A stretch of DNA of 64,000 nucleotides from Candidatus Staskawiczbacteria bacterium (GTDB taxonomy: Bacteria > Patescibacteriota > Minisyncoccia > Minisyncoccales > Staskawiczbacteraceae): contig CAISIO010000036.1 in the NCBI GenBank assembly GCA_903885445.1, positions 37,485 through 101,484 on the forward strand. The letters run 5' to 3'. Positions within the stretch are counted from its first letter, which is position 1. Every line of letters starts with the position of its first letter. This document shows, piece by piece, positions 6,394 to 63,944 of the stretch. The position numbers and the translations under genes are program-made. The notes beneath the pieces were generated by a model. The model made no database searches and had not been told where the DNA came from. It saw only the letters and a program-made list of their open reading frames with translations.

Positions 6394-6423
6394 ACTCTTC
6401 CTTTCTCTGCCCATGTGAATGTA

Positions 6424-10214: not shown

Positions 10215-10351
10215 ATAGAGCCGATATTTTACAAAAAACCACCAATTGGCGGTTTTTTACGTATAGTTAATACAAAGATAATACAGAAGGGATATAATTT
10301 AAAAAGAAAGGTCGCAAAAAATAATTATAATTAAAAAGTAAATTTACTAAT

Positions 10352-17742: not shown

Positions 17743-17805
17743 TTGAATGTACAGACTAAATAAAAGCCACCTTTTACTTTGGGTGGTTTTTTGGTAGAAT
17801 CATTT

Positions 17806-18151
17806 TAAGGAAGGAGGTGCGGTATGAAGAAACGCCGCGCTGCCTAAAAGAGGTCCGGAGTGGTGATCTCTCTCATAGCCCGTAAGGCTACAACAAGGCA
17901 AACGGCAAGTTCAAAGGTTCTCTTGCTACTTGTTGCGCGGAATAGCGTTGTACCCTCGTGAGAGATGTTAAACCAAGCTGCCTTCGGGAGATGGCAATCC
18001 CAACAGAGAGAAGGTAAACAACGAGAGGCTAACCATGCCTTTGGCCATGCATGCTGGCCCAGGTAAAGAGACAATTGTTCTCAGCACAGAGGAGCTAATG
18101 ATATGCTCTTCTACTTTCATGGGCGTGCATCTCTGTCCGCCCGTTTTTTTT
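17806..18151 (+). ncRNA. Candidate GC-rich structured RNA (~345 nt), class unknown
   Basis: Extended -10 TGGTAGAAT at 17792-17800. GC-rich segment with many nested helices (e.g. GAUCUCUCUCAU/GUGAGAGAUG, CAACAAG/CUUGUUG enclosing GCAAG/CUUGC, GGCCA/UGGCC, GAGGAGC/GCUCUUC, UUCG tetraloop). Ends in GGGCG..CGCCC + T8 terminator at 18121-18151. Only ORFs are a 7-codon MKKRRAA after AAGGAGG and an antisense junk ORF. Confidence 0.4.
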
Positions 18152-18795: not shown

Positions 18796-18819
18796 ATCGG
18801 CTCAACGCGTTGACCCGAT
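18796..18819. other. Candidate dif-like tyrosine-recombinase core site (9-6-9: ATCGGCTCA-ACGCGT-TGACCCGAT)
   Basis: Near-perfect inverted arms around a 6-bp spacer, 13 nt from the xer gene stop, at the point where gene orientation flips. Confidence 0.4.
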
Positions 18820-18831
18820 GGATTGTTATGA

Positions 18832-19803
18832 TTATTTTTTATCAGGGTCGGAGTGGAATTGGTGGTGGATATCGCGGAGGCGCTTGTTGGTTACGTGCGT
18901 GTAGATTTGAGTGGTGGCGATGTTTGAGTGGCCTAGAAATTCTTGGATGCTGCGCAAGTCAACGCCTTGGTTTAACAAATCTGTCGCGTAGCTGTGGCGC
19001 AAAGTATGCGGAGTGGTGAAGATTGGCACGCCTGAAAGCAGAGCGTATTTTTTTACCATTCTTTCTATAGATCGCGGAGTAAGACGGGAGTCGGTGTTAT
19101 CGGCCTTATCGCGGAAGTTTATAAACAAGGCTTTTTGGTTGGCGTGCTTAACATCATTTCTTATTTCTAAATATTTTCTGATAAAGCCCAACGCGCGTTC
19201 AGAAAAATAAACAACTCGAGGTTTTCCGCCTTTGCCAATAACACCAAGCTCCATATCTTTTTTATCTTTTAAACTGTTAAACTGCTCAAGATTTAAAGAA
19301 ACCAGTTCGGCGATGCGAAGCCCTGTTGAGAAAAACGCCTCCAAAATAGCCCGGTCGCGGGTGCTTATATCGTCTTTTGGCTCTATGGAAGATAAAAGCT
19401 TACCAATCTGCTCTAAACTAAGGAATTTTATGCTTTTTAAGCCCCTGTCAGGCTTTGAGAGCGATATTTTGTCAGGGGGCAGTGAAAGTACGTCTTTTGC
19501 CACAAAGTAGCCTAAAAAGGCCCTTAAGGCGATTAAATAGTAGTTTTGGGTGCCTTTAGACAGCAATTTGCCGGTAGTTGGGCTAGGCGTGCGGGAAAGG
19601 TATAAACGGTAGGTCCAAACATGGTCAGAGGTCAGCTGATGGGGGAGTAAAGAGGATAATTTGTCCTGGTCTAGCCAATGAAAAAATTTCCCCAGATAAT
19701 TTTTATAATTCTCCTGAGTATTTTTTCTCAAACCTTTTTCAACTTCGCAATAATCTAAAAAATCTTGCAGATGTTCTTTTATTGGTTTTGTTGAGTTTTG
19801 CAT
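18832..19803 (-). CDS. Tyrosine site-specific recombinase, XerC/XerD family
   Basis: 323 aa. N-terminal core-binding domain, C-terminal catalytic domain with R...HTLRHSYAT...LGHSNIATTQIYTHV (R-H-R-Y signature region). Confidence 0.85.
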   Translation of the reverse strand: MQNSTKPIKEHLQDFLDYCEVEKGLRKNTQENYKNYLGKFFHWLDQDKLSSLLPHQLTSDHVWTYRLYLSRTPSPTTGKLLSKGTQNYYLIALRAFLGYFVAKDVLSLPPDKISLSKPDRGLKSIKFLSLEQIGKLLSSIEPKDDISTRDRAILEAFFSTGLRIAELVSLNLEQFNSLKDKKDMELGVIGKGGKPRVVYFSERALGFIRKYLEIRNDVKHANQKALFINFRDKADNTDSRLTPRSIERMVKKYALLSGVPIFTTPHTLRHSYATDLLNQGVDLRSIQEFLGHSNIATTQIYTHVTNKRLRDIHHQFHSDPDKK

Positions 19804-20379: not shown

Positions 20380-20393
20380 TTTGTCGCACAATA
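20380..20393 (+). repeat. 14-bp motif copy C (TTTGTCGCACAATA; 22/23 identical with copy F over TTTGTCGCACAATAAGATA[G/A]ACC)
   Basis: Direct sequence comparison. Confidence 0.75.
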
Positions 20394-20489
20394 AGATAGA
20401 CCAAAACTTAAAGCGATTCTTAAAAAAGTTTGGGCGGCTGCTTTGGTAAGCAGCCGCCCCGAGAATCTGATGGTCAGATCCCCCCGTTG

Positions 20490-20654
20490 TCACCGTGAAG
20501 GTGACGTTGATGTGGCCGGCGTGATGCCGGCGTTTTCCAGGGCTTTTGCGATGCCCTGGCTGTGATCGCCCTGCATCTGGGTTGTTCTGCCAACTGCCCA
20601 AGCTCCGATGCAGAGCCCCGTGGCAATCACCAACATCGCAAGAATCCATTTCAT
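20490..20654 (-). CDS. Small secreted peptide (54 aa, signal peptide), GC-rich micro-island
   Basis: MKWILAMLVIATGLCIGAWAVG signal-like N-terminus. Terminator GGGCGGCTGC..GCAGCCGCCC + T-run at 20410-20455. Preferred over out-of-frame track ORF 20338..20649. Confidence 0.45.
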   Translation of the reverse strand: MKWILAMLVIATGLCIGAWAVGRTTQMQGDHSQGIAKALENAGITPATSTSPSR

Positions 20655-20769
20655 ATTCTGCCCTTTCGTTCGTGGTTCTATTGTGATTCAGCCTAGATTA
20701 ATTATAACATATTAATATAGTCATGTCAAGTAAATAAAAACACCCTGCGCGGGTGCTCTTACTTGCCGA

Positions 20770-20783
20770 TTTGTCGCACAATA
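20770..20783 (+). repeat. 14-bp motif copy D (TTTGTCGCACAATA)
   Basis: 8 nt beyond stop of 20792..21358 (minus) and before its CACCC..GGGTG terminator. Confidence 0.75.
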
Positions 20784-36241: not shown

Positions 36242-36784
36242 TTATAAATATTTTAACATTATGTACTCGCCGATAAGCTTGCCTTTGTACTGGATTTGCT
36301 TTGGAATTTTGGCGACAATCTTAAATCCCATCTTTTTGTAAAGCCCAATTGCCGGTTTATTATTAACATAAACCTCAAGCTTTATAATTTTAGGCGCAGG
36401 TTTTAGCTCTTTCTTTGCAAGTTTTATAACTTCCTGTGTTAAAAACTTTCCCAGCCCCAAGCCTCTTTAGCCTTCTCTGATTACTATTCCAAATCTGCCA
36501 ACGTGGTTTAGTCGCCATCTTTCCTGCTGTATGCCGGCGGTTCCAACGATTTCATTGTTTGATTCGGCTACCAAGTATGCGTGCGTTTTATTATTTACCG
36601 AAGCTAAAACCCCTTTCAGAAATGCCTTTTCACCCTTTAAATCAATTTCTTTATTCATAGACAGCTTAGCGTCTTCGCGGACCGTAGAGTTTATAAAATC
36701 TTGGAATTTTTTAGCGTTTCTTAAATCGGCTTGGCAAACCGTCCTTATGGTTATTTTTTTATTCCCAAATATCTTCGTTGTCAT
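36242..36784 (-). pseudogene. GNAT N-acetyltransferase interrupted by in-frame TAA (36464-36466)
   Basis: Track ORFs 36467..36784 (N-terminal half) and 36242..36460 (C-terminal half with ...FLTQEVIKLAKKELKPAPKIIKLEVYVNNKPAIGLYKKMGF) are in the same frame separated by one stop. Confidence 0.55.
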
Positions 36785-38270: not shown

Positions 38271-38434
38271 AACGCTTTTCTGTCTAAAAATTGTAAAAAA
38301 AGAAGCGATCCAGCTCGCGTGTGCGTGTGGACCGCTATTACTGCGGATGATCGCGTGCATGCCTAATGGCGCGCACATATTCTCTCCTTTGTGCCTTGTA
38401 GCACGGTTTCAGACTCTGGCAGGATTTGCCAGTC

Positions 38435-38521
38435 CTATTTCACTCTTCGCTTTGTGTACTTCTTGCGGCGAAGCCTGTTTCGTCTCGGCGCTCCTGCAAG
38501 TCGGCGAACCATCCTTCTCAT
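38435..38521 (-). CDS. Very basic 28-aa peptide (MRRMVRRLAGAPRRNRLRRKKYTKRRVK)
   Basis: GGAGGAAGAAACG-ATG SD. TTGACT-17-TATTAT promoter ~65 nt upstream. GC-rich. Coding status unproven. Confidence 0.3.
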   Translation of the reverse strand: MRRMVRRLAGAPRRNRLRRKKYTKRRVK

Positions 38522-38716
38522 CGTTTCTTCCTCCGAAAGGTGGCAGAAATGTGTCGCGAACAACAAAAACGAAGTATTATTTGATAATAATACCGCTGGC
38601 AAAAAAACTAGTCAATTGTTTATAACTTTTTGTAAAGAAAAAAGGCGACCCGGGCACCCTCACGGTGAGGATGTCCAGGTCGCCCTAAAGATTGGGCTTG
38701 CAGCCCGACGTTCAGG

Positions 38717-38878
38717 CTACGCGCCGGACTGGTCGGCCAGGCGGGTGATCTTCTTGACCATGCCCATGTTGTCGGCGGCGTCGGCGGCAGGCGGATCGTT
38801 GTTGCGCCGGGTAGTCGCCTGATTGTTGGCATCCAGCAGATCCGCGCCCAGGGTACGATGCGTGCGTCGTCGGTTCAT
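38717..38878 (-). CDS. Small hypothetical protein (53 aa), GC-rich micro-island
   Basis: AGGAGA SD. TTGACA-17-TACGAT promoter with ~90-nt leader. Strong terminator GGCGACC..GGGTCGCC + T-run at 38640-38700. Confidence 0.4.
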   Translation of the reverse strand: MNRRRTHRTLGADLLDANNQATTRRNNDPPAADAADNMGMVKKITRLADQSGA

Positions 38879-39041
38879 GGTCGGTGTCTCCTAAGGAGCC
38901 GAAAGGTGCAGTGATGCGCCTAACCTTACACAGGTCAGTGTGTCTACACAATATAGGCACACGCGCATCGGTTGTTTATATTATCGTAGCTCCAACAAAA
39001 AACCGTGTCAAGAGTTAATAAAATTAACACAATGGCTGGAA

Positions 39042-45183: not shown

Positions 45184-45578
45184 ATAATACAAAAAAAATC
45201 GGCCACGGGAGGGGGCATTCTCCCGTGGCCTTACTGCACGGCCGAGGGACGACCGCATGCTTGCCCAGCGTAACGGCTGGGCTGACGTTTGAAAGGAACT
45301 GCTGGCAGTACTATGCCAAGCAAAGATGGTAAATAAAACAGTTGACGGGTGAGTTCCGGCGGTAATGCGTTGCGGGAATGTATTCCTGGTGCGCGGGTCC
45401 GCATTCCTCCGCTCGCCGCGCTGTGCCCGGAAACATAAGATTCCCACGGAGACCTTGCATTCGCCGCTTCACGATGCCGGGGGTTGGATTCTGCCCGTAG
45501 TGCGTGACCGATTGGGGGCCATCGTTGCCCATTTTGACCACATGGGTCCGTATCGGCACCCGCCAACTGTCTCTCAAC
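45184..45578 (-). ncRNA. Candidate GC-rich structured RNA (~395 nt), class unknown
   Basis: Minus-strand TTGACG-17-TAGATT promoter (45586-45614). Transcript ends at GGCCACGGGAG..CTCCCGTGGCC + T8 terminator (45190-45221). Many local and long-range helices (UUCCGG/CCGGAA enclosing GCGCGG/CCGCGC; UGGCA/UGCCA; CCCAGC/GCUGGG). All overlapping ORFs in 4 frames look like GC-driven junk. Confidence 0.4.
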
Positions 45579-45636
45579 TAATTCAAATCTACTACAACAA
45601 AAAAGCGCCGTCAAGCGCATCTTTGTTTTAATTTTT

Positions 45637-53941: not shown

Positions 53942-55126
53942 TTATTTAATTTCTTTCACTTCTGAAACAATTATACCATCAGAAACTTTTATATTCACGT
54001 CTTGCCCGATTTTTGTGTCGCTTGTCTTCCTGACTATTTTCCCGCCAACCGACGCAATACTATATCCTAGCTTTAAATTCCTTTCGGGATTATTAAGATT
54101 TACCACTTTCTCTATTCCATTCAGTTTTTCGCGTGTTTTGTCGCACAATAAGATAAACCCTGTAAAATAGCTTTCCATTTGCTTATCCAAATTGGCGCCA
54201 ATATTCAAGATATTGTTTTTAAAATTCTGCAAAGATATTTTAAACTTGTTTTCAATTGTTTTATACTTTTCAAAAATCAGCCCATAACTGGCAAAAATTT
54301 TCCTTTCAAACCTTTCCAGCAACAACAACGCCTGTTCCCACGATTCATTCAGCAAATTAGCCACGGCAGTTGGAGTTGATTCGCTTCTGTCAGCTGCCAT
54401 TGCAACAAGCGGAACATCTTTATCGTGCCCAATTCCCACCAGCACCGGCACAGGAAACCCCACCACCTCGCGCACCAGCAGTTCATTGTTAAAAGGCATC
54501 AGCGATTCCATTGACCCGCCCCCTCTGATAATAACCAGCACATCAATATCTTTTTTTCTAAATGTTTTAATTGACTCCAGCAAATCTTCCACCGCCCCCT
54601 GCCCCTCAACCCTTGAATCAATCATTTTAATATCAAACCCAAACTTGCCAATATTATTTAAAAAGTCGTGTATGACCGCCCCTTGTTTTGAGGTAATCAC
54701 CCCAATTTTGTGCGGATATTTTGGAATTGCCCTTTTATTCTCCAAATCAAAAAGCCCTTCTTTGGCCAGCTTGTTTTTCAATTCATCGTACTGTTTTTTT
54801 ATATCGCCCTCGCCAGCCAATTCAATTGTATCTGCAATAAAAGACAGCCTCCCGTTTGGAGCATAAATCTCCGGCGCTCCATAAGCCACAATTTTCTTCC
54901 CCGGCTCCAAAGTAATCCCAAACAATCTATACTTTGAGCTCCACATTATGCAATTCAACATCGTCCCATCTTTCTCATCCTTCAAAGTAAAATACATATG
55001 CCCTGTTGGCCCAGCCTTAGCCTCGCCCACCTCCCCCACAATCCTCGCCTTCATCCACTTCAAATCCGCATTAACCACCGTAATAAACTCCGATACAGAA
55101 TAAATTTTATCCTTTTCAATTTCCAT
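53942..55126 (-). CDS. xseA: Exodeoxyribonuclease VII large subunit
   Basis: N-terminal OB-fold (tRNA_anti-like) and ExoVII large-subunit catalytic region. Confidence 0.85.
   Translation of the reverse strand: MEIEKDKIYSVSEFITVVNADLKWMKARIVGEVGEAKAGPTGHMYFTLKDEKDGTMLNCIMWSSKYRLFGITLEPGKKIVAYGAPEIYAPNGRLSFIADTIELAGEGDIKKQYDELKNKLAKEGLFDLENKRAIPKYPHKIGVITSKQGAVIHDFLNNIGKFGFDIKMIDSRVEGQGAVEDLLESIKTFRKKDIDVLVIIRGGGSMESLMPFNNELLVREVVGFPVPVLVGIGHDKDVPLVAMAADRSESTPTAVANLLNESWEQALLLLERFERKIFASYGLIFEKYKTIENKFKISLQNFKNNILNIGANLDKQMESYFTGFILLCDKTREKLNGIEKVVNLNNPERNLKLGYSIASVGGKIVRKTSDTKIGQDVNIKVSDGIIVSEVKEIK
54137..54150 (+). repeat. 14-bp motif copy F (TTTGTCGCACAATA) inside xseA coding sequence
   Basis: Encodes ...FILLCDKT... 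on the minus strand. 22/23 identical to copy C over 23 nt. Confidence 0.7.
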
Positions 55127-55234: not shown

Positions 55235-55834
55235 TCATTGTTTATACTGCCGTTGACGCCTGACGAGGGTGATAGTGCCCAAACCGAGTAGTACAATCGT
55301 CGCTGGCTCGGGTATAGCTACGCCCTCTATTCGATAATCAACAGTTAGATAAAAGTCTGTCCAAATCCCATCATGTTGACCGTTTTCTCCTGGGATATCT
55401 ATTGTAAGATACTCAACAGTAGCGCTTATACTGTCAATTCGGTATCCTTGCAGGTCATGACCATTGCCGTCGCATATAGACATCCAAATATCCCATTTAC
55501 TTGGGTCATCGGATGTAAAAAGGATTGGCATAATCATTGAGTCATCAATGCCGTCCGTTGCAAATGCGACGAATGCCGCAAAATTAGGGTCATTGTCTCT
55601 GTTAGCGATAAAGGTCTTCCCTACATCCTGGATGCCAACGGTTATGTCCAAAATTGGGGGAGAGATTGGATTATCGCCCCATTGATCACCAACGAAGATG
55701 GCTGTATTTATCTCGTGGACGATGCGGTGCATGCCGAACCCCCCATCGAAGGAATACGTCTCGATGACTTCCGCTGGGGAAACGCCGGAACAGAGCAGAC
55801 AGGTTGCCATAACCATAGTTGTGCAAGCCTTCAT
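55235..55834 (-). CDS. Secreted protein with PEP-CTERM-like C-terminal sorting signal (GC-rich)
   Basis: Signal peptide. C-terminus ...IPEPATIVLLGLGTITLVRRQRQ (PEP + hydrophobic span + Arg cluster). TTGACT-17-TATTAA promoter and AAGGAGA SD. Confidence 0.5.
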   Translation of the reverse strand: MKACTTMVMATCLLCSGVSPAEVIETYSFDGGFGMHRIVHEINTAIFVGDQWGDNPISPPILDITVGIQDVGKTFIANRDNDPNFAAFVAFATDGIDDSMIMPILFTSDDPSKWDIWMSICDGNGHDLQGYRIDSISATVEYLTIDIPGENGQHDGIWTDFYLTVDYRIEGVAIPEPATIVLLGLGTITLVRRQRQYKQ

Positions 55835-55972
55835 CAGTATTCTCCTTACAAGGGACTCTTCGTGACAACTTGTCGCGATAGATAATTAATACAACAAAAT
55901 ATGATTATAGTCAAACAAAAAACCGCCAATGGCGGTTTTGTTTTTGAACTAATCTTACGATTGTTAACGTGT

Positions 55973-56377
55973 TTATTCTTTTTTTTCTTCTACTTCCTCC
56001 GCTTTAACAAACTTCAATTCTTGTTTTTTAAAATTCACTAAAGCAATATGAGAGGAAAATAATTCAACGCCGCAAATTGCTTCTGTGGATTTTGGATTAT
56101 CAATCATAGAAGCTAATACCTGCTTTTCTACTCCGTCTACTATTACTTTTACGGAAAAATATAATACTGGTATCGGATAGCCATTAGCAAGCTCTGCTTC
56201 TCCTACGGAAGACAATTGTGCTCCTATGTCAATTAAATCAAGGATAGGTAAAGACAAACTTCCAGAATGGCCTGTATCAAATAACGCAGTTATTTGTTTT
56301 TTGTAGCCTTCTTTACTGCCGCTGATTTCTATGACAACCTTCGGGCTACCATCGCGTGCGTCAAAAATTCCAATCAT
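55973..56377 (-). CDS. Retropepsin-like (clan AA) aspartic protease
   Basis: ALFDTGHSGSLSLP contains the D-T/S-G active-site motif in a ~130-aa protein. Confidence 0.65.
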   Translation of the reverse strand: MIGIFDARDGSPKVVIEISGSKEGYKKQITALFDTGHSGSLSLPILDLIDIGAQLSSVGEAELANGYPIPVLYFSVKVIVDGVEKQVLASMIDNPKSTEAICGVELFSSHIALVNFKKQELKFVKAEEVEEKKE

Positions 56378-56378
56378 A

Positions 56379-56681
56379 TTACTGATAGCAAGGATTAAAA
56401 TTCAAGGAATAGCGGGAAGCTTTGTCCCCCTGTCCTATCCTTCTTATAAACATTATTTGGGTGGGGAATTCTTTTTTTGCCGAAGCAATTGCCTCGTCGG
56501 TTGTGTTCCCAATAAATTGTTTTCCCGAATTAACTTCAATAACTATATATTTACCATTCTGTATGGGTTCCAAAGCATTCTTAAGCCCATCATAAATCTT
56601 ATTTCCCTTGTCAATTATTTCTTGTATATTAGTCGGAGGTTTTGGTTGAGTTGGTTTTTCTTCTGGATTTGGATTTGTCAT
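56379..56681 (-). CDS. Hypothetical protein (DUF often paired with retropepsin-like proteases)
   Basis: 100-aa ORF abutting the protease gene. Confidence 0.4.
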   Translation of the reverse strand: MTNPNPEEKPTQPKPPTNIQEIIDKGNKIYDGLKNALEPIQNGKYIVIEVNSGKQFIGNTTDEAIASAKKEFPTQIMFIRRIGQGDKASRYSLNFNPCYQ

Positions 56682-56691
56682 AATTTTGTGT

Positions 56692-56916
56692 TTACTCCTC
56701 TATTATAAATTTTGAAATATCGTAAAGTTTTGATTTAACCTTGACGCCACCTTCGCATTCTAATACGCACATTCTGTGTTGATTGGTTGCGTCAGACTGG
56801 TACCCTTTATTTTTTACTTTTTCCGCGCATAGAACCGTTTTACCCAATAACTGAAATAAAAGTATCCAGCCGTGCTCATTAACGTAAAAACAGACTTTTT
56901 TCTTTTTGCTATCCAT
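56692..56916 (-). CDS. Hypothetical small Cys-containing protein
   Basis: 74-aa ORF, overlaps upstream ORF by 8 nt. Confidence 0.35.
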   Translation of the reverse strand: MDSKKKKVCFYVNEHGWILLFQLLGKTVLCAEKVKNKGYQSDATNQHRMCVLECEGGVKVKSKLYDISKFIIEE

Positions 56917-57106
56917 TTAATTCCTTTATTCTTTTCTCTTTTGTGAAATCACTGAGAACTTCTTCTACTTGATCGGCAGGTATTTTTAAGCTCAATACTA
57001 TATCAAAAGCACTTAAGGTTTTTACTCCATTAGTTTTTTCTTTCGCAATAAAATCAGCTACCTCTGTTTTAGCTTTTTTTATAGATAATTTTCTAAATTT
57101 CAACAT
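56909..57106 (-). CDS. Hypothetical small protein
   Basis: 65-aa ORF, translationally coupled to 56692..56916. Confidence 0.35.
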   Translation of the reverse strand: MLKFRKLSIKKAKTEVADFIAKEKTNGVKTLSAFDIVLSLKIPADQVEEVLSDFTKEKRIKELNG

Positions 57107-57293
57107 GGGAATTATTTTATTATTTTATCACAAAGCCCGTTTGTTAGACACTGTGGATAACTTTTTTTGCCAGAGATTTCTATGTTTATCACAAATATAT
57201 GGCGAAGTCAACACCTATTATTACGTATTATTTTAAATTTTAGATTAAATTTTTTTTGATAGCTTTCGTCGCCAAATTGATTTATTCTGTCTA

Positions 57294-57800
57294 TTATATT
57301 TTTATTTTTTCTTTGGCGGATTGGAGCAGGGCTAAATCTCGGGTGACCATATATGGGCCGTCTAGAACTATTGGTTTGCTTTCCTTAACTTTTTTTATTG
57401 CTTCATCAAGCGAAACCCAAACTGTTTCGAAACCTTCCTCGGCTTCATCTTTTTCCAAATGTGGAACGCCTTTTTCTCCAACAAGCTCGGCAATATAGCA
57501 ATATGAAATCTGTTTTAGATTAAATTCCTTTCTGTATTCCACGGTCAAACCCAATTCACCGGTAATTTTAACATTGCATCCAATTTCCTCCAAACATTCC
57601 CGTTTTAAAGCTTCTTCTTTTGTTTCGCCCTTTTCAATTCCTCCGCCGGGTAATTTATAATAAAAAGTTTTTGTTGCGTGAAGCAAAGCAACTAATTTAT
57701 TGCTATCAAAAACAATCGCCCTCGCCGCCTCGCGAATTTTATATCCATCCGCCTCCTCATCCGAAACATTTCTAATATTGATTAACTTAATCTGCTCCAT
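57294..57800 (-). CDS. NUDIX hydrolase
   Basis: Nudix box GGGIEKGETKEEALKRECLEEIG. Confidence 0.8.
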   Translation of the reverse strand: MEQIKLINIRNVSDEEADGYKIREAARAIVFDSNKLVALLHATKTFYYKLPGGGIEKGETKEEALKRECLEEIGCNVKITGELGLTVEYRKEFNLKQISYCYIAELVGEKGVPHLEKDEAEEGFETVWVSLDEAIKKVKESKPIVLDGPYMVTRDLALLQSAKEKIKI

Positions 57801-57804
57801 TGAG

Positions 57805-57824
57805 TTATTTTACTCTTTATCTAT
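57805..57824. repeat. Conserved promoter module copy R1 (revcomp ATAGATAAAGAGTAAAATAA)
   Basis: Same 20-mer found at 60345 and 62462, each immediately upstream of a minus-strand AT-rich enzyme gene. Confidence 0.7.
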
Positions 57825-57901
57825 ATTTTTGCAAAAAAAATCCCCAACGCGCTTTGATCTGCGTGGGGACATGAGACATTCAGTTGCACCGGGTGGCGCA
57901 A

Positions 57902-58405
57902 CTACTTGACGACGTATTCCTCGAAGTTCTCCTTGGGCGGATTGGGCTTGGTCTTGAACGGCGCCCAGTTGAACTTCGAACTTGAAGCGTTGTACTCCCT
58001 GGCCAGGTTGTTCCGTTGGGAAGCAACAGCGATGAGATCTTCCCTCGCTTGCTGACGCTCCCTATTGAACTGGACCTGGATGTGGGGTGGCCACTTGGAC
58101 CTGTCGTCGCCGTAGCTCTTGTACTGCTCGTCCACCGACGAGCCCCGCTTCTCGAACATGACGATGTCCTGGTCCATCTTCTTTATGCGGGCGTTCTGGT
58201 CGATGAACCATTCGTACTTCTCGAGCGCGGCCTTGGGGCCGAACTCCTGCTGGGCGACCACCGCCGCCTCGCCGAACCAGCCGAAGCCGTATCCGATGAC
58301 GCCCACGACCACGGAAAACGCCACCACGAAAAGGATGACCTTCCAGGTGATGGACCAAGGACCCTTCTCCGCCGCTTGCTGATACCCATTCCAGTTGTTG
58401 CTCAT
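57902..58405 (-). CDS. Hypothetical membrane-anchored protein (GC-rich)
   Basis: 167-aa ORF with N-terminal TM. Terminator CCCCAACGC..GCGTGGGG + T-run at 57839-57875. Confidence 0.4.
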   Translation of the reverse strand: MSNNWNGYQQAAEKGPWSITWKVILFVVAFSVVVGVIGYGFGWFGEAAVVAQQEFGPKAALEKYEWFIDQNARIKKMDQDIVMFEKRGSSVDEQYKSYGDDRSKWPPHIQVQFNRERQQAREDLIAVASQRNNLAREYNASSSKFNWAPFKTKPNPPKENFEEYVVK

Positions 58406-58456
58406 GCGATTCTCCTGTTCCCGAGGTTAATTGTTCCGTTCTGGTGCCCGTTCGTC

Positions 58457-59155
58457 CTACTTCTTCTCCGCCTCGACCTTGAACTTGCCCTCCTTGATTC
58501 TCAGTTGCTCCTCCTGCTGGAGTTGCCAGTCGTGAGCGGCCTTGCTCATGTTGTACATACCCGTCACCTCGTCTTGTGGGTTGACGAGATCAATAGGGTA
58601 ATCGGTGATCAGGTAACCAATGCCGCCCGCCGTACCATACTGATGGTATCTGTGCATGGCGTCGAACCAGTAAATGTAGTTGTCCGATTCTCCACGGGTT
58701 CCGTCGGGGCCGATGGCCTCGTCTGTGAGAAAACCCTTATAGCTCGGTAGGCTGCTGGTGACCACGTTTTGACCATCAGCAACATAGTGCTTCGGTTCCA
58801 ACCGCTTGTTGGAACTGGTGACCTTGCAAGCCACCGGCATCCGCTTGATGATTTTGCCGTCCAGGGCCATCAAGTGAATCCACATCACCTTGGTGGGGTC
58901 ATTGGTCACCGCAATGCGGTCGTTGATGTTCTGCTGTTCGACCGTGTTGCCTCTGGAGTTCAGCGGTACTTTGACTGGAGAAGCTTGCTTGGCACCACTT
59001 GCCGATTCTTCGATCCTCCGATTATCGCACCCGCTCTGGCCTTGCCCTACCATCAGGCAGAGCACTCCGAACACAACCATTATTGTCGCCTTGCGCATGT
59101 TTGCGCTCCTTTCCAACTTCTCACGAGATTGTATGGACAAACCCCGCCATTTCAA
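58457..59155 (-). CDS. Hypothetical lipoprotein-like protein (GC-rich)
   Basis: Probable true start at internal MRKATIMVVFGVLCLMVGQGQSGC (signal + Cys). Confidence 0.4.
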   Translation of the reverse strand: MKWRGLSIQSREKLERSANMRKATIMVVFGVLCLMVGQGQSGCDNRRIEESASGAKQASPVKVPLNSRGNTVEQQNINDRIAVTNDPTKVMWIHLMALDGKIIKRMPVACKVTSSNKRLEPKHYVADGQNVVTSSLPSYKGFLTDEAIGPDGTRGESDNYIYWFDAMHRYHQYGTAGGIGYLITDYPIDLVNPQDEVTGMYNMSKAAHDWQLQQEEQLRIKEGKFKVEAEKK

Positions 59156-59326
59156 TGGCGAGATAAAACGAGGGGCTAGGACTTTTCTGCTAAAATGTCT
59201 CCTTTCAGATTTACAACGAACCGATTAGACAGCCACAAGCTGTCTAACTTACACTTTGGATTATAGCACTATTTATTATTAATGTCAACAGACGTAAAAC
59301 CAAAAAGCCGAGATAAAATCTCGGCG

Positions 59327-59340
59327 ATTGTCGCACAACA
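59327..59340 (+). repeat. 14-bp motif copy G (ATTGTCGCACAACA)
   Basis: Between stop of 59349..59870 and its GCCGAGAT..ATCTCGGC terminator. Confidence 0.7.
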
Positions 59341-59348
59341 AGATTATT

Positions 59349-59870
59349 TTATAAATTATATTCCCAGAAGGGTTGCCATTTGAAGGGAGTTTTTACGCAA
59401 TCTTCAAGAGTTTTGCCGGTCAGAGTATCTAATCCGAATTGAGTTGCGCGGTGGCCGACAACTAAAATTATCTTATCGGGATATTTTTGTTTCAATTCTT
59501 TAAAAAATTCTTGAACCCTTGTTATCGCCTGCTCATAGCTCTCGCCTTTTGGGAAAGGCATTTTTATTCTTTCTGCTTTCATTTTATCAACAATATTTTT
59601 GGGTTTGCCGTTAAAATCTCCGTAATTTAATTCGCGCAATCTTTTATCAATGATAACAGGAATTTTTTCTCTAAATGCAATTTTAACAGTATCTATTGCC
59701 CTAATTAAATCCGAGCAACAAATAATATCAAATTTTATATCTCCCAAAGCATTTTCCAGCTTTTTTGATTGTTGCACGCCCAACGGAGATAACTCAATAT
59801 TGTTCCAGCCGGAAGCTATGTCTTTTTCGTTATCAGTTGTTGTTGAATGGGTCGCAAAATATATCTTCAT
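59349..59870 (-). CDS. Histidine-phosphatase (phosphoglycerate-mutase-like) superfamily protein
   Basis: 173-aa, fold-level resemblance only (catalytic RHG replaced by THS at N-terminus), so assignment is tentative. Confidence 0.45.
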   Translation of the reverse strand: MKIYFATHSTTTDNEKDIASGWNNIELSPLGVQQSKKLENALGDIKFDIICCSDLIRAIDTVKIAFREKIPVIIDKRLRELNYGDFNGKPKNIVDKMKAERIKMPFPKGESYEQAITRVQEFFKELKQKYPDKIILVVGHRATQFGLDTLTGKTLEDCVKTPFKWQPFWEYNL

Positions 59871-60325
59871 AATGAATTTTCTTTGACCAGCTCTATCCTG
59901 GGCTCGCCGTCGCCGAAATAATTTTCTTTTTGCTCTTTTATTACAAAACCAAATGAAAGATAAATTTTCAGCGCGCCACTGTTTTCGGGATGCGTTACCA
60001 GCTCAATTCTTTTCATATTTTTCAGTTCTTCCAGCAAAAGCCGGGTTGCCTCCCGCCCAATCCCCTGTTTTTGAAATTGCGGGTCAATGGCAAGTCCCGA
60101 GATATAAGCAACGCCATCGGGCTTTATCTCGTAAGATGCGTCTCCGACAATTTTGCCATCACGCAAAATAAGATAAACCACTGCGTTATTTTTATTAAAA
60201 ACTTCTTCCCACCCTTTTTCTGTAATCTCAGCAGAATAGTTTTTGATGCCAATCAGCTTCTTTTCAATCTCTATCAAAACCGGAATGTCTTTAATTGTCG
60301 CTTTTTTAAAAATTATCTCCGCCAT
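59867..60325 (-). CDS. GNAT-family N-acetyltransferase
   Basis: Motif A ...QFQKQGIGREATRLLL... Confidence 0.8.
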   Translation of the reverse strand: MAEIIFKKATIKDIPVLIEIEKKLIGIKNYSAEITEKGWEEVFNKNNAVVYLILRDGKIVGDASYEIKPDGVAYISGLAIDPQFQKQGIGREATRLLLEELKNMKRIELVTHPENSGALKIYLSFGFVIKEQKENYFGDGEPRIELVKENSL

Positions 60326-60344
60326 AAAAATCTTTATTGTTCTG

Positions 60345-60406
60345 TTATTTTACTCTTTATCTATTTCTTTTCAATCACCGCCATCGGGTCAACGAACTGA
60401 CCCGAT
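60345..60406. repeat. Promoter module + 24-bp palindrome, copy R2/P2 (ATCGGGTCA-ACGAAC-TGACCCGAT at 60383-60406)
   Basis: ~62 bp near-identical to 62462-62523. Confidence 0.75.
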
Positions 60407-60503
60407 AAAATTTGCAAGAAAAATGGCCCGGCAACCAGCATCCTTGCTGGTCATCGGGCCTTTGTGTCGCGCTCGCTATATGCGAGCAAAACCTGTTAGA
60501 GGA

Positions 60504-60878
60504 CTAACCCTCCTCATCGTCCTCGTCGAGGGGTCTGTCTTTCTTGCCTTCATCCTCATCGTCATCTTCCTCGTCCTCGTCATCGTCGGGGAAGAGACTC
60601 CAGTCTTCCTCTTCCTCGTCGTCGTCATCGTCAAGGTTCTGATCCAGGAGGTTCCCCTCGGCGAGCTCTCGGGCGGTCGCGGCGAGCCACTCACGGAGTT
60701 CTTCCGGCGTGACGCCCATCTCCTTGGCAGCACGGAGGAAAAGCTCTTTGTCGAGTTCCTCGGTACTGTCGTTCAAGGGAAGATCTTCGCCAGGGTATTT
60801 CTCCGGCTTCAGCTCCTTCTCTTTCCAGTTCCACTCGTCCACCGCCAGGCCAATCGTCTCAATCCTTGCCTTGTCCAC
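60504..60878 (-). CDS. Hypothetical highly acidic protein (GC-rich), paralog of 61192..61536
   Basis: GTG start with AAGGAGA SD. Shares ...VDEWNWKEKE...LFLRAAKEMGVTPEELREW... with neighbour. Poly-D/E tail. Terminator at 60420-60470. Confidence 0.45.
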   Translation of the reverse strand: MDKARIETIGLAVDEWNWKEKELKPEKYPGEDLPLNDSTEELDKELFLRAAKEMGVTPEELREWLAATARELAEGNLLDQNLDDDDDEEEEDWSLFPDDDEDEEDDDEDEGKKDRPLDEDDEEG

Positions 60879-61191
60879 GTCAGTCTCCTTTTCTCGGCGC
60901 TACTTGTCCTTGTGTTATCGCCAACAGTTGCTCTGGCGCTTCAGCGGCGGTTAAGGCAACTGTTTTCGTACTATGAATATAATATCATATATAGAAATTA
61001 CGTCAATATTAAAATCAAACAAAAAGTACGGTAGCCTAAGAGCACGATTTCGCTATCTTAATGCGGATTAAATTAGTCCGCATCGCGGTTTTCTGCTAAG
61101 CCTTAATTCGCGCAAAAAAATCCCCGAGCACGCGATGATCTGCGTGTCCGGGGTCCCTTCTCGCCTTGCTGAAGCGAGAACTTACGACAAT

Positions 61192-61536
61192 TCATGCTCC
61201 CGCGCCTCGTCGGTCAGCTCTCTTCCCACACTGTTGGTCGGAGCGAGCGCGGCAAGGATGTCCGTCTGTGCTGAGCATATCAGCTATGCGCAGTGGACTC
61301 ACGTTTGGAGAAGGCGCTCCGAGCGGTCCGCACAGATCCTCCTCGAACCAATTGTGTAGTTCGTCTGGTTCGATGCTCATTTCCCGGGCCGCGCGGAGAA
61401 ACAATTTCCTGTTTTCCCCCTCAGTGTTGACGGTCAGTGCAGGAATGGCATTGGGAAAGTCTTTTCCCACTTGCTCCTTATCGTTCCATTCTTTCACCAG
61501 CCTTTCAATGTCGCCGAAACGCACATGTGTCATCAT
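61192..61536 (-). CDS. Hypothetical protein (GC-rich), paralog of 60504..60878
   Basis: AAGGAGA SD. ...VKEWNDKEQV...LFLRAAREMSIEPDELHNW... Confidence 0.45.
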   Translation of the reverse strand: MMTHVRFGDIERLVKEWNDKEQVGKDFPNAIPALTVNTEGENRKLFLRAAREMSIEPDELHNWFEEDLCGPLGAPSPNVSPLRIADMLSTDGHPCRARSDQQCGKRADRRGAGA

Positions 61537-61655
61537 GATTGTCTCCTTTTTCGGCCTATGCTCGTCGCACGTTATTTATATATAAAATACCACATATAAA
61601 AATGTGTGTCAATAAAAATAAAAGCAAACAAAAAGCCGATATTGAAGTGTCGGCT

Positions 61656-61669
61656 TTTGTCGCACAATA
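61656..61669 (+). repeat. 14-bp motif copy H (TTTGTCGCACAATA)
   Basis: Between stop of HIT gene (61673) and its GCCGACA..TCGGC terminator. Confidence 0.75.
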
Positions 61670-61672
61670 TAA

Positions 61673-62128
61673 TTATTTTAGCAAAGCTATGATTTTATTT
61701 TTTTCTTCCTCGGATAAATCTTTGTATAACGGGTCTTTGAATTTTTCAGCTTTTTCTTGGAGCTCGTCCTGAAAATCTCTTGGCAAAAGATGAAAATGCA
61801 CGTGGCCAACATGCGTTTGGCTGTTTTTTACGTAGGGTTTAAAGTTTTGCCTGATATCGCACCCCGATGATAATTTTTCCAGTATCTTTCCCTGAAACTC
61901 CACAAGCAAATCAAAAATTTCGCTTTGTTCTTCTTTTGTCAGCTGGGAAATACTTGTGACATGCCTTTTAGGAATAATAAGTGTGTGCCCCGCAACCAAT
62001 CTTGGATTGCTCAAAATAACATAAGCATTCTCTGTCTCTTTAATAGTCCTGTCTTCCTTGTATATATTGCAAAACGGACAATCCATAATTTTATTTTCCA
62101 TTATTGATATACTTTGATAATTTTTCAA
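61673..62128 (-). CDS. HIT-family nucleotide hydrolase/transferase
   Basis: Histidine triad HVGHVHFHLLPR, ...HTLIIPKRHV... Confidence 0.8.
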   Translation of the reverse strand: MKNYQSISIMENKIMDCPFCNIYKEDRTIKETENAYVILSNPRLVAGHTLIIPKRHVTSISQLTKEEQSEIFDLLVEFQGKILEKLSSGCDIRQNFKPYVKNSQTHVGHVHFHLLPRDFQDELQEKAEKFKDPLYKDLSEEEKNKIIALLK

Positions 62129-62456
62129 TCATATCAGGCGAATCATCGTATTCTATAAAATTCTCGGTTAATTTGCCGATGGATTTTGAATATTTGCTTC
62201 CCGTCTTGAAAATGCAGACAACCGGTATGTTAAAAACATCAGCCCAGCCCAATTCAATGCCTTGCCCCGTTGAAGAAAATGATATTTCAGCCACCACAAG
62301 GTTGCTATCTTTAATTATATCTTTTGTGATAACGTCTTTGCCATTCTCGTGAGGAAAAGATATTTCATGCTGTTTATTTATCTCCGAATTTCTAAGCGGA
62401 ATATATATCTGATTTTCAAAATCAAAACTGCTTGAGTGGCTAACAAATATTTTCAT
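62091..62456 (-). CDS. Nucleoside 2-deoxyribosyltransferase-like protein
   Basis: 121-aa flavodoxin-like fold pattern MKIFVSHSS...VVAEIS...GQGIELGWADVFNIPVV. Confidence 0.5.
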   Translation of the reverse strand: MKIFVSHSSSFDFENQIYIPLRNSEINKQHEISFPHENGKDVITKDIIKDSNLVVAEISFSSTGQGIELGWADVFNIPVVCIFKTGSKYSKSIGKLTENFIEYDDSPDMIEKLSKYINNGK

Positions 62457-62461
62457 ATTGC

Positions 62462-62523
62462 TTATTTTACTCTTTATCTATTTCTTTTCAACCGATGCCA
62501 TCGGGTCAACGAACTGACCCGAT
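62462..62523. repeat. Promoter module + 24-bp palindrome, copy R3/P3 (ATCGGGTCA-ACGAAC-TGACCCGAT at 62500-62523)
   Basis: Near-identical to 60345-60406. Additional nested palindrome CCGATGCCATCGG. Confidence 0.75.
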
Positions 62524-62596
62524 AAAACAGGCAAAAAAAACAGCTTCACTCCAAGTGAGCCTTGATGTGAAGCCTGCGTCGCAACGAAGCGTCCGC

Positions 62597-62965
62597 CTAG
62601 AGGGCGAGCTTCTTGCACAATCGTGCGACATCACTGCTGACCTGCAATGCCCTGGCGCAGAACTCCTCTGGGCTTTTGCCCTCCTTGGCGGCCAGCTTTG
62701 CGATTACATCCTGCCTAAGGGAGTGAGTTTTGGCGATGACCTTCCCGGGTACGTCTGGCGAAACGCCAAGCGTAACGGCAATCTGGTCCAGGGTCGGCAT
62801 GGCACCGCCGGCTACCAGAACCTTCAAGGTCAAGTATCCTACGACGGCCCGGGACTGCTTGCCCCGATCCACTGGCGGACTCGCGGCCGGCTTAGCCTCG
62901 GTTTCGACTTCTGTTCCATTGGGCATGTTGCACCATTCCTTTTCTGTGGCCAATTGTTGCGACAC
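62597..62965 (-). CDS. Hypothetical small protein with possible HTH (GC-rich)
   Basis: ...PTLDQIAVTLGVSPDVPGKVIAK resembles a helix-turn-helix. Terminator GCTTCAC..GTGAAGC + T8. Confidence 0.4.
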   Translation of the reverse strand: MSQQLATEKEWCNMPNGTEVETEAKPAASPPVDRGKQSRAVVGYLTLKVLVAGGAMPTLDQIAVTLGVSPDVPGKVIAKTHSLRQDVIAKLAAKEGKSPEEFCARALQVSSDVARLCKKLAL

Positions 62966-63083
62966 CTATATTTAATATAATCTCTGTAGGTTTTCTGTCA
63001 ACATGAAAAAATCTCAAATGAGTAGAATTACGCGAATAATTTTACAAAAAAATGCCCCTTAATTTTTATCAAGGGGCTGAAAG

Positions 63084-63944
63084 TCACAAAAGATCAGAGA
63101 GCAAATCCACAAAGCGCGAGCTGGGGCCCTCTAACCCTTTAACTTGCCTGCTTAAGTCTCCGCATCGCACAACTCTCGAGGAGCATTTCTCGATTTCCTC
63201 AAACAGAGCGATAGTTTGGGACAGGCAAAACCGAGAAAACGATAATTGGAATTTGGACGGAATAGATGCCCATTCCCCGGGACGCCCGAACGGGAAAATG
63301 TATGGCACGCCTATATTTTCCCCCGTGTTAAGCAGGCGGCCTGAAAGTGGCACGCCCGGATAGAAATCCCGCTCGCACAGTTCGTCTATTACGCCGTTGT
63401 ACAGGCGCACATAACGGGTTTCACATCCCATATCGGCCAGTTTGTTCCTTCCCTCAGCGATTGCAATTCCTATGCAAACAACGGGAACTCGTATGCCTGC
63501 TCTGTTGAGAAGGTCAATCACCCGGCTTATGGAAACGCCCGAATAGACTACATCATCAACAAGGACGACCTCTCGCGTGTTGGATTCCCTAAGCTGCCGT
63601 ATTTGTTTAAGCACCGGGTCAGACCCTGCTCTGCGTCCTATCCCCCTGTCTTTGCCCTGTTCGTCAACTAAGCGGGCAACCTTAATTGTTAACTGCGCGG
63701 GGAAGTACGCTTCGTCCAGAGATACAGTGGCTAATCCAAGACTGAAAATAATCCGATTAAGTCCTTCTGTAATCTCGGCCTCTCCGACGAATTCAAAGCC
63801 CGTAAACATCCTCCGCATAAATTCGGAGAAGTCCCGGCGCAACTCGTCGAAAAATTGTTGCGGGGGCAGGATAAATCCTTTTTCGCGCGCCCATTTTTCC
63901 AGCAAAAGATGGATGTCCTCGGAGACAACATAAGGAATGCTCAT
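63084..63944 (-). CDS. Phosphoribosyltransferase-domain protein (GC-rich)
   Basis: Type I PRTase PRPP-binding motif EVVLVDDVVYSGVSISRVIDLL. Confidence 0.5.
   Translation of the reverse strand: MSIPYVVSEDIHLLLEKWAREKGFILPPQQFFDELRRDFSEFMRRMFTGFEFVGEAEITEGLNRIIFSLGLATVSLDEAYFPAQLTIKVARLVDEQGKDRGIGRRAGSDPVLKQIRQLRESNTREVVLVDDVVYSGVSISRVIDLLNRAGIRVPVVCIGIAIAEGRNKLADMGCETRYVRLYNGVIDELCERDFYPGVPLSGRLLNTGENIGVPYIFPFGRPGEWASIPSKFQLSFSRFCLSQTIALFEEIEKCSSRVVRCGDLSRQVKGLEGPSSRFVDLLSDLL

Follow-up and report, generated by a model that had tools for sequence, protein, structure and literature searches.

GC-rich, Shine-Dalgarno-led transcription units interleaved with AT-rich mini-operons upstream of xseA in a Staskawiczbacteria genome: a probable case of moron-like accretion

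Introduction

How do bacteria with very small genomes acquire foreign genes and keep their own genes expressed when foreign DNA lands inside an operon? The Patescibacteria, or candidate phyla radiation (CPR), have tiny, streamlined genomes and no genetics, and to our knowledge little has been established about gene acquisition and expression in this group. Here, we address this question for a locus of a Candidatus Staskawiczbacteria bacterium, contained in a 64,000-nucleotide (nt) stretch of assembly GCA_903885445.1 (contig CAISIO010000036.1, positions 37,485 to 101,484), which we refer to as the window. Upstream of xseA in this window, blocks of GC-rich and AT-rich genes alternate. A preliminary description, made from the sequence of the window, had claimed that the GC-rich blocks hold genes of unknown function, that the AT-rich blocks hold pairs of enzyme genes behind duplicated promoters, and that the arrangement looks like serial accretion of modules at a recurring site. 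By combining composition, signal scans, homology searches, and comparison with related genomes, we find that insulated foreign units have probably accreted, in the manner of phage morons, in a small chromosomal operon at an insertion hot spot, with copies of a promoter restoring the downstream genes.

Results

GC-rich and AT-rich blocks alternate along the locus. Between 55.2 and 64 kb, the blocks all lie on the minus strand. In the direction of transcription, the GC-rich genes A and B are followed by AT block 1 (an NDT-like gene and a HIT-family gene), E and F, AT block 2 (genes for a GNAT acetyltransferase and a histidine phosphatase, HisPhos), I and J, AT block 3 (a NUDIX gene), a very AT-rich block with the open reading frames (ORFs) L to O, a PEP-CTERM gene, and xseA (Table 1). 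The GC content of the window is 0.414 overall, and the GC content at third codon positions (GC3) of 21 of its long genes gives a background of 0.405±0.022. In 300-nt windows, GC content reaches maxima of 0.58-0.61 inside the GC blocks (∼57.8-59.2, 60.35-61.6, and 62.45-63.9 kb) and drops to 0.28-0.40 in the stretches that separate them; the GC blocks as such have a GC content of 0.50-0.59. Consistently, the in-frame GC3 is 0.54-0.85 in the six GC-rich genes and 0.32-0.41 in the five AT-rich ones. Thus, the alternation is borne out, as is the claim that the GC blocks have a composition unlike that of the host. The proposed period of about 2.2 kb did not hold: the spacings are 2117, 2329, and 2540 nt over two to three units, which reflects modules of similar size and no true periodicity. 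Pfam supports the calls of a phosphoribosyltransferase (PRTase), HIT, GNAT, His_Phos_1, NUDIX, and PEP-CTERM; the NDT call is upheld only weakly, by a weak PF05014 match and weak sequence matches in the Protein Data Bank, of which the closest is DNPH1. E and F, described as paralogs, are indeed 40% identical over 65 amino acids (aa). The description of AT blocks as enzyme pairs fits two of them, whereas the third holds NUDIX alone, and the division into GC genes of unknown function and AT enzymes is not strict, because protein A is itself a nucleotide-type enzyme.

The GC-rich units share a predicted architecture, namely, an AT-rich near-consensus promoter, a GC-rich leader, a strong Shine-Dalgarno (SD) sequence, one or two ORFs, and, last, a hairpin with a T-run after it. 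That each GC block has its own SD and terminator, as had been suggested, is therefore what the sequence scans predict for each unit. Scanning for sigma-70-like sites returned 30 sites compared with 16±3.8 in shuffled sequences, and the seven that score best in the region fall, without exception, on the minus strand and at the inferred junctions. Terminators or T-run hairpins are predicted 3' of A, B, E, F, and J. Most strikingly, 13 of the 14 GC-unit ORFs but only 3 of the 55 native or AT ORFs have an upstream SD (scored as GGAG, GAGG, or AGGA within −22 to −4; Fisher p = 2e-10). The same contrast was found in L011 and L004 (loci from other genomes or contigs are designated by L and a number); moreover, the SDs of I-J are kept even in L016, where the composition of the pair matches that of the host, and in every CPR genome examined. 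Because only 48% of the 16S rRNAs of Parcubacteria are reported to have a detectable anti-SD motif (PMC9297842), a mostly SD-less host that carries SD-led foreign genes is plausible.

Comparison with relatives argues for insertion. XseA is 74-87% identical to its orthologs in six metagenome-assembled genomes (MAGs), four of which bear the title Candidatus Staskawiczbacteria and the other two 'uncultured Candidatus Saccharibacteria'; the identity falls to 62-65% for a further three CPR genomes that are more distant and include two Nealsonbacteria. The window thus stems from a Parcubacteria/CPR chromosome. In L003 (XseA 83% identical), HisPhos (4930-5454), NUDIX (5451-5942), and xseA (5943-) follow one another without a gap: HisPhos overlaps NUDIX at ATGA, NUDIX joins xseA directly as TAAATG, and the GC content is 0.30-0.42 throughout. 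HisPhos and NUDIX of the window are 70% and 54% identical to their counterparts in L003. Here, HisPhos and NUDIX are separated by 1.55 kb, comprising a sequence motif (see below), a terminator, a promoter, I-J, a second terminator, and a promoter that we named P_AT, and NUDIX and xseA are separated by 2.2 kb with the L-O block and the PEP-CTERM gene. Because the three genes are contiguous and AT-rich in L003, we conclude that the I-J unit and the block from L to the PEP-CTERM gene are insertions. Adjacency of the flanking genes in a relative was found for these two insertions only; for A/B and E/F, no relative with NDT-HIT-GNAT was found.

The interval upstream of xseA carries different cargo among relatives. 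In L004, a CsaA-like gene and xseA are separated by a 112-aa ORF with a GC3 of 0.62, which comes with the motif, a TTGACT promoter, an SD, and its terminator; L005 carries two other units, for a membrane protein and a Zn-ribbon protein; and L001 and L006 have a hydrolase-like gene. Because the cargo differs, this interval, as judged from these sequences, is an insertion hot spot. The empty sites in L003 and the other cargo in L004 and L005 support the suggested serial accretion of foreign modules; the 'recurring site' stands as far as the hot spot is concerned, but units of the same type are also present elsewhere in the window. Neither a uniform composition nor a gene order conserved in distant relatives without the repeats was found, each of which would have spoken against accretion. 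The neighbors of HisPhos vary: in L002, the gene follows GNAT at a distant locus, whereas in L003, it follows a CsaA-like gene, and we infer that the AT genes are also accessory and shuffled. The housekeeping label given to them is therefore only partly apt: with neighbors of HisPhos that differ among L002, L003, and the window, not all of them are stable core genes.

The junctions between native and foreign blocks are repeated. The 20-mer ATAGATAAAGAGTAAAATAA occurs in three exact copies on the minus strand at 57805, 60345, and 62462 and nowhere else in the window, with 0.02 copies expected by chance. The 20-bp promoter core said to be shared by the AT blocks thus is present exactly three times, and we can refine it to the spacer and −10 box of a TTGAAA/TTGCAA-N16-TAAAAT promoter, i.e., P_AT. 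The 20-mer sits within a 31-nt repeat that is found three times, and two of the P_AT copies match over 30 nt. The start codons of the NDT-like gene and of NUDIX lie only 7 and 6 nt, respectively, past the −10 box of their P_AT copies. Three further repeats mark the junctions (Table 1): the 79-nt repeat D1 (90% identity between copies); the 55-nt repeat D6 (71%), located 3' of the HisPhos and HIT stop codons; and the 35-nt terminator repeat D8 (80%), located 3' of J and E. The two copies of D1 each include one exact copy of the 24-nt palindrome ATCGGGTCAGTTCGTTGACCCGAT, of which a diverged third copy, ATCGGGTCAACGCGTTGAGCCGAT, lies at 18796-18819 between convergent DnaQ-like and Xer genes. This position suggests a native terminator-type element, and the palindrome is probably a native (bidirectional) terminator-type hairpin. 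Among metagenome contigs, the 20-mer gave 45 matches, all of them unrelated chance matches in low-GC organisms and none in a sister strain; likewise, neither the 20-mer nor D1 recurs in the window's other cassettes or in the relatives. The sequence TAAAATAA starts D6 and ends D1/D4 exactly. We considered it as a target-site duplication and rejected it, because it has 21 copies on the minus strand, as is typical of AT-rich gene junctions, and is missing at the empty HisPhos/NUDIX site of L003; it is a weak lead only.

Other loci have duplicated junctions of their own. In L005, an 87-nt direct repeat (99% identical; 5233-5319 and 5766-5852) brackets a 533-nt unit, and in L011, the I-J unit is bracketed by a 33-nt direct repeat (85% identical; 7862-7894 and 9236-9268) of the terminal (3') part of a P-type ATPase gene. 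These flanking repeats suggest integration of the Campbell type or at att-like sites without a nearby integrase. Because the duplicated junctions are unrelated in sequence across genomes, we suggest that they are a by-product of integration at short homologies or by Campbell-type recombination and consider a universal att site less probable.

Native blocks end with a lineage-specific motif. The 14-mer noted 3' of the AT blocks is real, but it is one instance of a lineage-wide 11-mer, TTGTGCGACAA. This 11-mer has nine copies in the 64 kb compared with 1.25 expected, all co-oriented with the genes; six of the nine are intergenic (p = 0.0016), mostly right after a stop codon and before a terminator, and two are inside conserved coding sequence, namely, xseA (LLCD) and hrcA (FIVRQ). 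It is present in the six closest XseA loci, L001-L006, with the consensus TTTA-TTGTGCGACA-A/G and absent from L007-L009 and L011-L017; outside the lineage, matches with one mismatch were found in L010 and L064/65. TTGTGCGACAA could be a 3' untranslated region element, a DNA uptake signal, or a recombination signal.

The cargo of two units is widespread among Patescibacteria. Protein I has at least 114 homologs (44-73% identity), the named sources of which are all Patescibacteria or an unclassified 'bacterium' MAG, and protein A has 259 homologs (∼50-59% identity), the named sources of which are Patescibacteria except for one Actinobacteria MAG and one Omnitrophica MAG. The I-J pair is conserved in L011, L014, L016, and four IMG/VR loci and is at a different locus in each of the three genomes examined (L011, L014, and L016). 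Its GC3 is 0.69/0.72 in L011 compared with 0.21-0.37 in the neighbors, 0.89 compared with ∼0.73 in L014 (58% GC), and 0.44/0.46 compared with ∼0.5, i.e., host-like, in L016. A lies in a TrpR-like-LOG-like-A neighborhood in L063 and L064/L065, with elevated GC in L063 and near-native GC in L064. Because I-J in L016 match the GC content of the host and A in L064 nearly does so, high GC is not intrinsic to these families but marks recent receipt by AT-rich hosts. On the basis of composition, this host dependence indicates transfer between CPR lineages. In line with this, most of the horizontal gene transfer (HGT) detected in Patescibacteria is reported to be between Patescibacteria (PMC12455944). 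The I-J unit of L011 adjoins a further GC unit, which consists of a 321-aa ORF (9510-10475; GC3 0.63) with its own promoter, SD, and terminator; its 'NGQHT' motif is reminiscent of a ParB/DGQHR-type nuclease fold.

In the viral collection, a profile of I reached seven loci, and single-sequence scans for I and A and a profile of A gave nothing. The I(-J) relatives from IMG/VR are distant; at least one contig, L070, carries phage-type genes, and L067 resembles a CPR chromosome. An AlphaFold2 model of A (pLDDT, the predicted local distance difference test score, 94.5) matched XPRT, APRT, and OPRT in Foldseek searches (E ∼1e-5), and A is accordingly predicted to have a type I PRTase fold plus an extra domain. 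For I, the AlphaFold model (pLDDT 66) is too poor for a fold search. For B, E, F, I, and J, nothing significant was found in Pfam, NCBIfam, PHROGs, and PADLOC; the only traces are a very weak Rz-like spanin match of J and a weak SinI-like match of F. A relationship of B to E/F, considered because of a shared 'PEE(L/F)' motif, was rejected, as BLASTP gave no alignment. Contig look-ups for F and B returned only short fragments that are 100% identical to the window, and those for its A and I gave no contig.

Units of the same type are present elsewhere in the window. At 6128-7534 (minus strand), three tandem GC-rich units encode proteins of exactly 80 aa each, together with a 45-aa transmembrane ORF; each unit has a TTGACT-N17-TAT(T/A)AT promoter, an AAGGAG SD, and its own terminator, as at the locus studied here. 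A unit with a 53-aa signal-peptide ORF at 20381-20771 (minus strand) lies between direct copies of TA-TTGTGCGACAA-A. Upstream of hrcA (38300-39010, minus strand), two units encode a 53-aa ORF and a highly basic 28-aa ORF, each with its own promoter and terminator. Because matching GC units occur elsewhere in the window, the locus studied here is only the densest cluster of a genome-wide phenomenon. In addition, two GC-rich segments without ORFs, at 45195-45585 (minus strand) and 17805-18150 (plus strand), each lie between a promoter and a terminator. Compared with shuffled sequences, the former folds far better (z = −4.0) and the latter has z = −2.2; Rfam has no known RNA in either segment, and we consider them candidate structured noncoding RNAs, e.g., a divergent RNase P RNA or another CPR RNA. 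Finally, a GNAT gene at 36242-36784 (minus strand) is apparently split into ORFs of 105 and 72 aa; its homolog in L002, located just ahead of HisPhos, is an intact GNAT of 180 aa. The split gene may be what a frameshift has left of a GNAT-HisPhos pair near hrcA.

Two insertions close to xseA differ from the GC-rich units. The L-O block has a promoter near 57210, a terminator at 55919-55939, and a clan-AA (DTGF) aspartic protease among its ORFs, and it represents a second compositional class of insertion at the hot spot. PEP-CTERM proteins usually accompany an exosortase and an outer membrane. Because the PEP-CTERM gene in this CPR genome has an SD and a slightly raised GC3, it was probably transferred from a Gram-negative donor.

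Table 1. Features of the locus in the order of transcription; positions are those of the window
Feature	Position	Strand	Basis and remarks
Unit 1a, protein A, 286 aa, predicted type I phosphoribosyltransferase fold	63084..63944	−	PF00156; SD AGGAGA; GC3 0.54
Predicted intrinsic terminator 3' of A	63054..63077	−	Scan: 10-bp stem, then T-run
Unit 1b promoter, TTGACA-16-TATATT	62974..63001	−	Consensus scan, 11/12 positions
Unit 1b, orphan protein B, 109 aa from ATG	62597..62926	−	SD AAGGAA; GC3 0.69
Junction repeat D1, copy a (T-run of B terminator, palindrome, P_AT, 20-mer)	62462..62540	−	Repeat search
Palindrome in D1 copy a, ATCGGGTCA-N6-TGACCCGAT	62500-62523	−	Repeat search
P_AT in D1 copy a, TTGAAA-16-TAAAAT	62464-62491	−	Promoter scan
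AT block 1, gene 1, NDT/DNPH1-like	62091..62456	−	PF05014 (weak); no SD; GC3 0.34
AT block 1, gene 2, HIT-family hydrolase	61673..62128	−	PF01230, E = 3.9e-11; GC3 0.38
Junction repeat D6, copy a	61626..61680	−	TAAAATAA overlapping HIT stop; TTGTGCGACAA at 61657-61667; terminator hairpin
Unit 2a promoter, TTGACA-17-TATTTT, extended TG	61584..61612	−	Promoter scan
Unit 2a, orphan protein E, 114 aa	61192..61536	−	SD AAGGAGA; GC3 0.56
Repeat D8, terminator of E	61112..61146	−	Repeat search; 80% identical to J terminator
Unit 2b promoter, TTGACG-16-TATTAT with TG	60979..61006	−	Promoter scan
Unit 2b, orphan protein F, 124 aa, E paralog, strongly acidic tail	60504..60878	−	SD AAGGAGA; GC3 0.72
Junction repeat D1, copy b	60345..60423	−	Repeat search; palindrome 60383-60406; P_AT 60347-60374
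AT block 2, GNAT acetyltransferase (59867-60325) and histidine phosphatase (59349-59870)	59349..60325	−	Pfam; GC3 0.41 and 0.32; GNAT stop and HisPhos start share ATGA overlap
Junction repeat D6, copy b	59297..59351	−	TAAAATAA at HisPhos stop; TTGTGCGACAA at 59328-59338; terminator 59307-59325
Unit 3 promoter, TTGACA-17-TATAAT	59260..59288	−	Promoter scan, 12/12 + TG; leader ∼160 nt
Unit 3, protein I, lipoprotein-like	58457-59098	−	SD AGGAG; GC3 0.71
Unit 3, protein J, N-terminal transmembrane/helical	57902-58405	−	SD AGGAG; GC3 0.85
J terminator (D8 copy, 57831-57865) fused to P_AT copy c, TTGCAA-16-TAAAAT	57804..57865	−	Scans
AT block 3, NUDIX hydrolase	57294..57800	−	PF00293; GC3 0.33
Very AT-rich inserted block, four small ORFs L-O	55973..57215	−	GC3 0.20-0.39; absent from L003
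Unit 4, PEP-CTERM protein	55235..55834	−	PF07589/TIGR02595; SD AAGGAGA; GC3 0.47
xseA, conserved anchor bounding the hot spot	53942..55126	−	Pfam; orthologs 62-87% identical in nine CPR genomes
11-mer TTGTGCGACAA	15900(+), 17731(+), 20381(−), 20771(−), 37943(−), 54138(−), 59328(−), 61657(−)		Variant at 4338(−)

Discussion

We suggest that the alternation at this locus is probably the outcome of moron-like accretion of insulated foreign units in a small chromosomal operon. According to this model, a compact, AT-rich, SD-less operon of small house-cleaning enzymes for nucleotides and small molecules, of which the order ...HisPhos-NUDIX-xseA-xseB persists in one relative (L003), would have been cut into mini-operons by at least three foreign GC-rich transcription units (A+B, E+F, and I-J), and the AT-rich L-O block and the PEP-CTERM gene would have been inserted as well. 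The terminators of the foreign units would silence the native genes downstream; we propose that a P_AT copy after each insertion restarts the next native block, probably on a leaderless or short-leader mRNA, and that the end of each native block, i.e., TTGTGCGACAA and a terminator, would insulate the next foreign unit. Interleaving of native and foreign units accounts for both the alternation in composition and the spacing of ∼2.2 kb. The donors may have been SD-using organisms of higher GC content, mostly other Patescibacteria. Integration presumably proceeded by recombination at short junction homologies and not by a dedicated integrase, either as a Campbell-type single crossover of circular or taken-up DNA or as unequal exchange between junction copies, and selection against polarity would keep the promoter copies.

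Several observations weigh against this explanation. The promoters of the GC units are AT-rich, host-like, and unrelated to each other outside the hexamers, and they may, therefore, have arrived with the cargo or been recruited locally. No donor sequence above ∼73% protein identity was found, and the direction and timing of transfer derive from composition alone. B, E, and F have no homologs in collections of 5.8e9 and 1.84e9 proteins; in the latter, B matches only itself. The upstream end of unit 1a runs past the edge of the window, which places the left end of the array outside it. The P_AT copies (20/20 positions identical, and 30/30 for two of them) are too alike for an independent origin. 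Finally, because the AT blocks themselves shuffle, a native operon with insertions is a simplification.

The locus resembles known systems only in part. Phage morons possess a promoter and a terminator of their own and a deviant GC content and lie between genes that are adjacent in relatives (PMC3594210; Hendrix/Juhala concept). Like these, the units described here are independent, each with a predicted sigma-70 promoter and intrinsic terminator; their GC content deviates from the surroundings; they are inserted, as seen for I-J and for the block from L to the PEP-CTERM gene, between genes that are adjacent in related genomes; the genes that they bring are small, have accessory or unknown roles, and often encode a membrane protein or lipoprotein; and distant I-J homologs occur on phage-like IMG/VR contigs. 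In contrast to morons, the units sit in a bacterial chromosomal operon (relatives have the flanking xseAB, HisPhos, and NUDIX on the chromosome), several of them are stacked and alternate with mini-operons of native genes, each is followed by a copy of the restart promoter, and they differ from the host in having an SD. By analogy, the locus would work like a moron array; however, we do not file it as a member of that family, because the recipient is not a phage. Consistently, a prophage was considered and rejected, because the locus has no capsid, terminase, or integrase genes and its flanks are chromosomal in nine CPR genomes. Genomic islands and other HGT regions of Patescibacteria are likewise deviant accessory DNA that is mostly exchanged between CPR lineages, and natural competence has been proposed as a route for it (PMC12455944). 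Unlike classical islands, the units described here span only 0.4-1.5 kb, lack tRNA and integrase hallmarks, have a promoter, an SD, and a terminator each, and lie inside an operon between duplicated junctions. No integrase, transposase, or tRNA gene was found in 52-64 kb; flanking direct repeats are present but junction-specific.

Integron arrays are the other obvious comparison: they too consist of small units in one orientation, mostly with a single gene each, whose composition is foreign and whose function is unknown; repeated junction elements lie between the units; and the content varies at a fixed position of the chromosome. A cassette array of the integron type or of another site-specific kind, for which TTGTGCGACAA, the TAAAATAA core, or the 79-nt repeat would be the att candidates, could explain why co-oriented units with one or two genes each have repeated sequences at the junctions between them, why the 53-aa unit at 20381-20771 is bracketed by direct copies of the 11-mer and the L005 unit by near-identical repeats, why the motif lies upstream of units in L004 and L005, and why TAAAATAA bounds D6 and D1/D4 so exactly. 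Nevertheless, we consider such an array quite unlikely. We found no IntI or attI in the 64-kb window and no attC-type sites in 55-64 kb: the sole tyrosine recombinase of the window (18832-19803) lies 35 kb away and scores 225 bits as XerC/D but 102 bits on the IntI model, for which the cut-off is 265, and no RYYYAAC...GTTRRRY attC-type pairs are present on either strand of 55-64 kb. Integron cassettes are mostly promoterless and depend on a common Pc, whereas each unit here has its own near-consensus promoter and an ordinary short rho-independent terminator with a GC stem and a T-run. Moreover, native genes lie between the units; the junction repeats are confined to this locus, and flanking repeats vary in sequence and length among genomes; TAAAATAA is common at AT-rich gene junctions; and TTGTGCGACAA also lies inside conserved xseA and hrcA coding sequence. 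Tandem segmental duplication of a ∼2.2-kb unit (promoter, two genes, terminator, promoter, GC gene, and terminator) followed by divergence or replacement appears even less probable. It would fit the regular repeat spacings of 2117 and 2329 nt, the paralogy of E and F, and the 71-100% identity of the regulatory flanks; however, equivalent slots hold unrelated folds (NDT-like/GNAT, HIT/His-phosphatase, A/E, and B/F, with no B-F alignment), E and F share one unit and are not in successive units, the abutting HisPhos-NUDIX pair in L003 requires insertion, and duplication cannot yield the contrast in composition and SDs between blocks.

The GC-rich, SD-led state could also be intrinsic or selected, e.g., for expression level or mRNA structure, in genes that are vertically inherited residents. 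The elevated GC of I-J and A relative to their neighbors in several genomes, even in the GC-rich L014, the conserved TrpR-LOG-A neighborhood, and the retention of the I-J SDs in every context examined are in line with this idea. Yet, the GC3 of I-J is at or below background in L016 and A is near native in L064, the location of I-J differs in every genome examined, highly expressed native genes of the window (those for DnaK and ribosomal proteins) have a background GC3, and L003 lacks I-J at the HisPhos/NUDIX site; taken together, we regard an intrinsic state as improbable. An artefact by which fragments of a GC-rich organism were joined to an AT-rich CPR contig at short repeats has to be considered, because the contig (118.5 kb) stems from a metagenome assembly and its junctions contain repeats that match exactly over as many as 31 nt, all the more so as the sibling-sample contig L074 ends at the start of D1 and the sibling contig L075 opens with 47 unrelated bases that are joined at window position 63263 and is identical from there downward. 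(The L075 breakpoint lies inside gene A and could be a strain variant or an assembly artefact.) We judge this to be very unlikely, because the same architecture is present in independent assemblies of other projects (L004, L005, L011, and L063); each GC ORF lies between a host-type AT promoter and a terminator, in one orientation and with the lineage motif at the junctions; exact repeats of ≤31 nt are below the k-mers typical of final assembly; and L073-L076, which come from other samples, are 100% identical in the unit interiors, with L074 spanning the A-to-B junction.

Beyond moron-like accretion at a single hot spot, we speculate, as a possible but rather doubtful extension, that the units belong to an undescribed class of integrase-less mini mobile elements in Patescibacteria, i.e., self-contained expression cassettes. 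Such elements, made up of a sigma-70 promoter, a strong SD, one or two small ORFs, and a terminator, would circulate among CPR, including lineages that do not use SDs, and would integrate at terminator-promoter junctions by Campbell-type recombination at short homologies, leaving direct repeats of 16-87 nt. Acting as a signal for uptake or recombination, TTGTGCGACAA may label the integration sites or favor integration there, and copied restart promoters would let streamlined operons tolerate insertions.

Islands and morons are familiar concepts, and neither is overturned here. What we consider worth systematic follow-up is the stacking of units inside an operon, the promoters that would restart native genes, the contrast in SD use, the occurrence across CPR genomes of cassettes that have junction repeats but no integrase, and the lineage-specific 11-mer. 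The orphan proteins B, E, and F and the widespread I-J module are candidates for symbiosis- or phage-related functions, and integration without dedicated recombinases becomes a testable hypothesis. Altogether, the locus provides a picture, at nucleotide resolution, of foreign genes in CPR bacteria arriving or being retained as fully insulated transcription units, with insertion inside a tight operon compensated by promoter copying. The foreign units can be told apart by GC3 and by their translation-initiation signal, as native genes almost never have an SD. If this is general, then the combination of a promoter, an SD, an elevated GC3, and a terminator would serve as a rule for recognizing recent HGT in CPR genomes.

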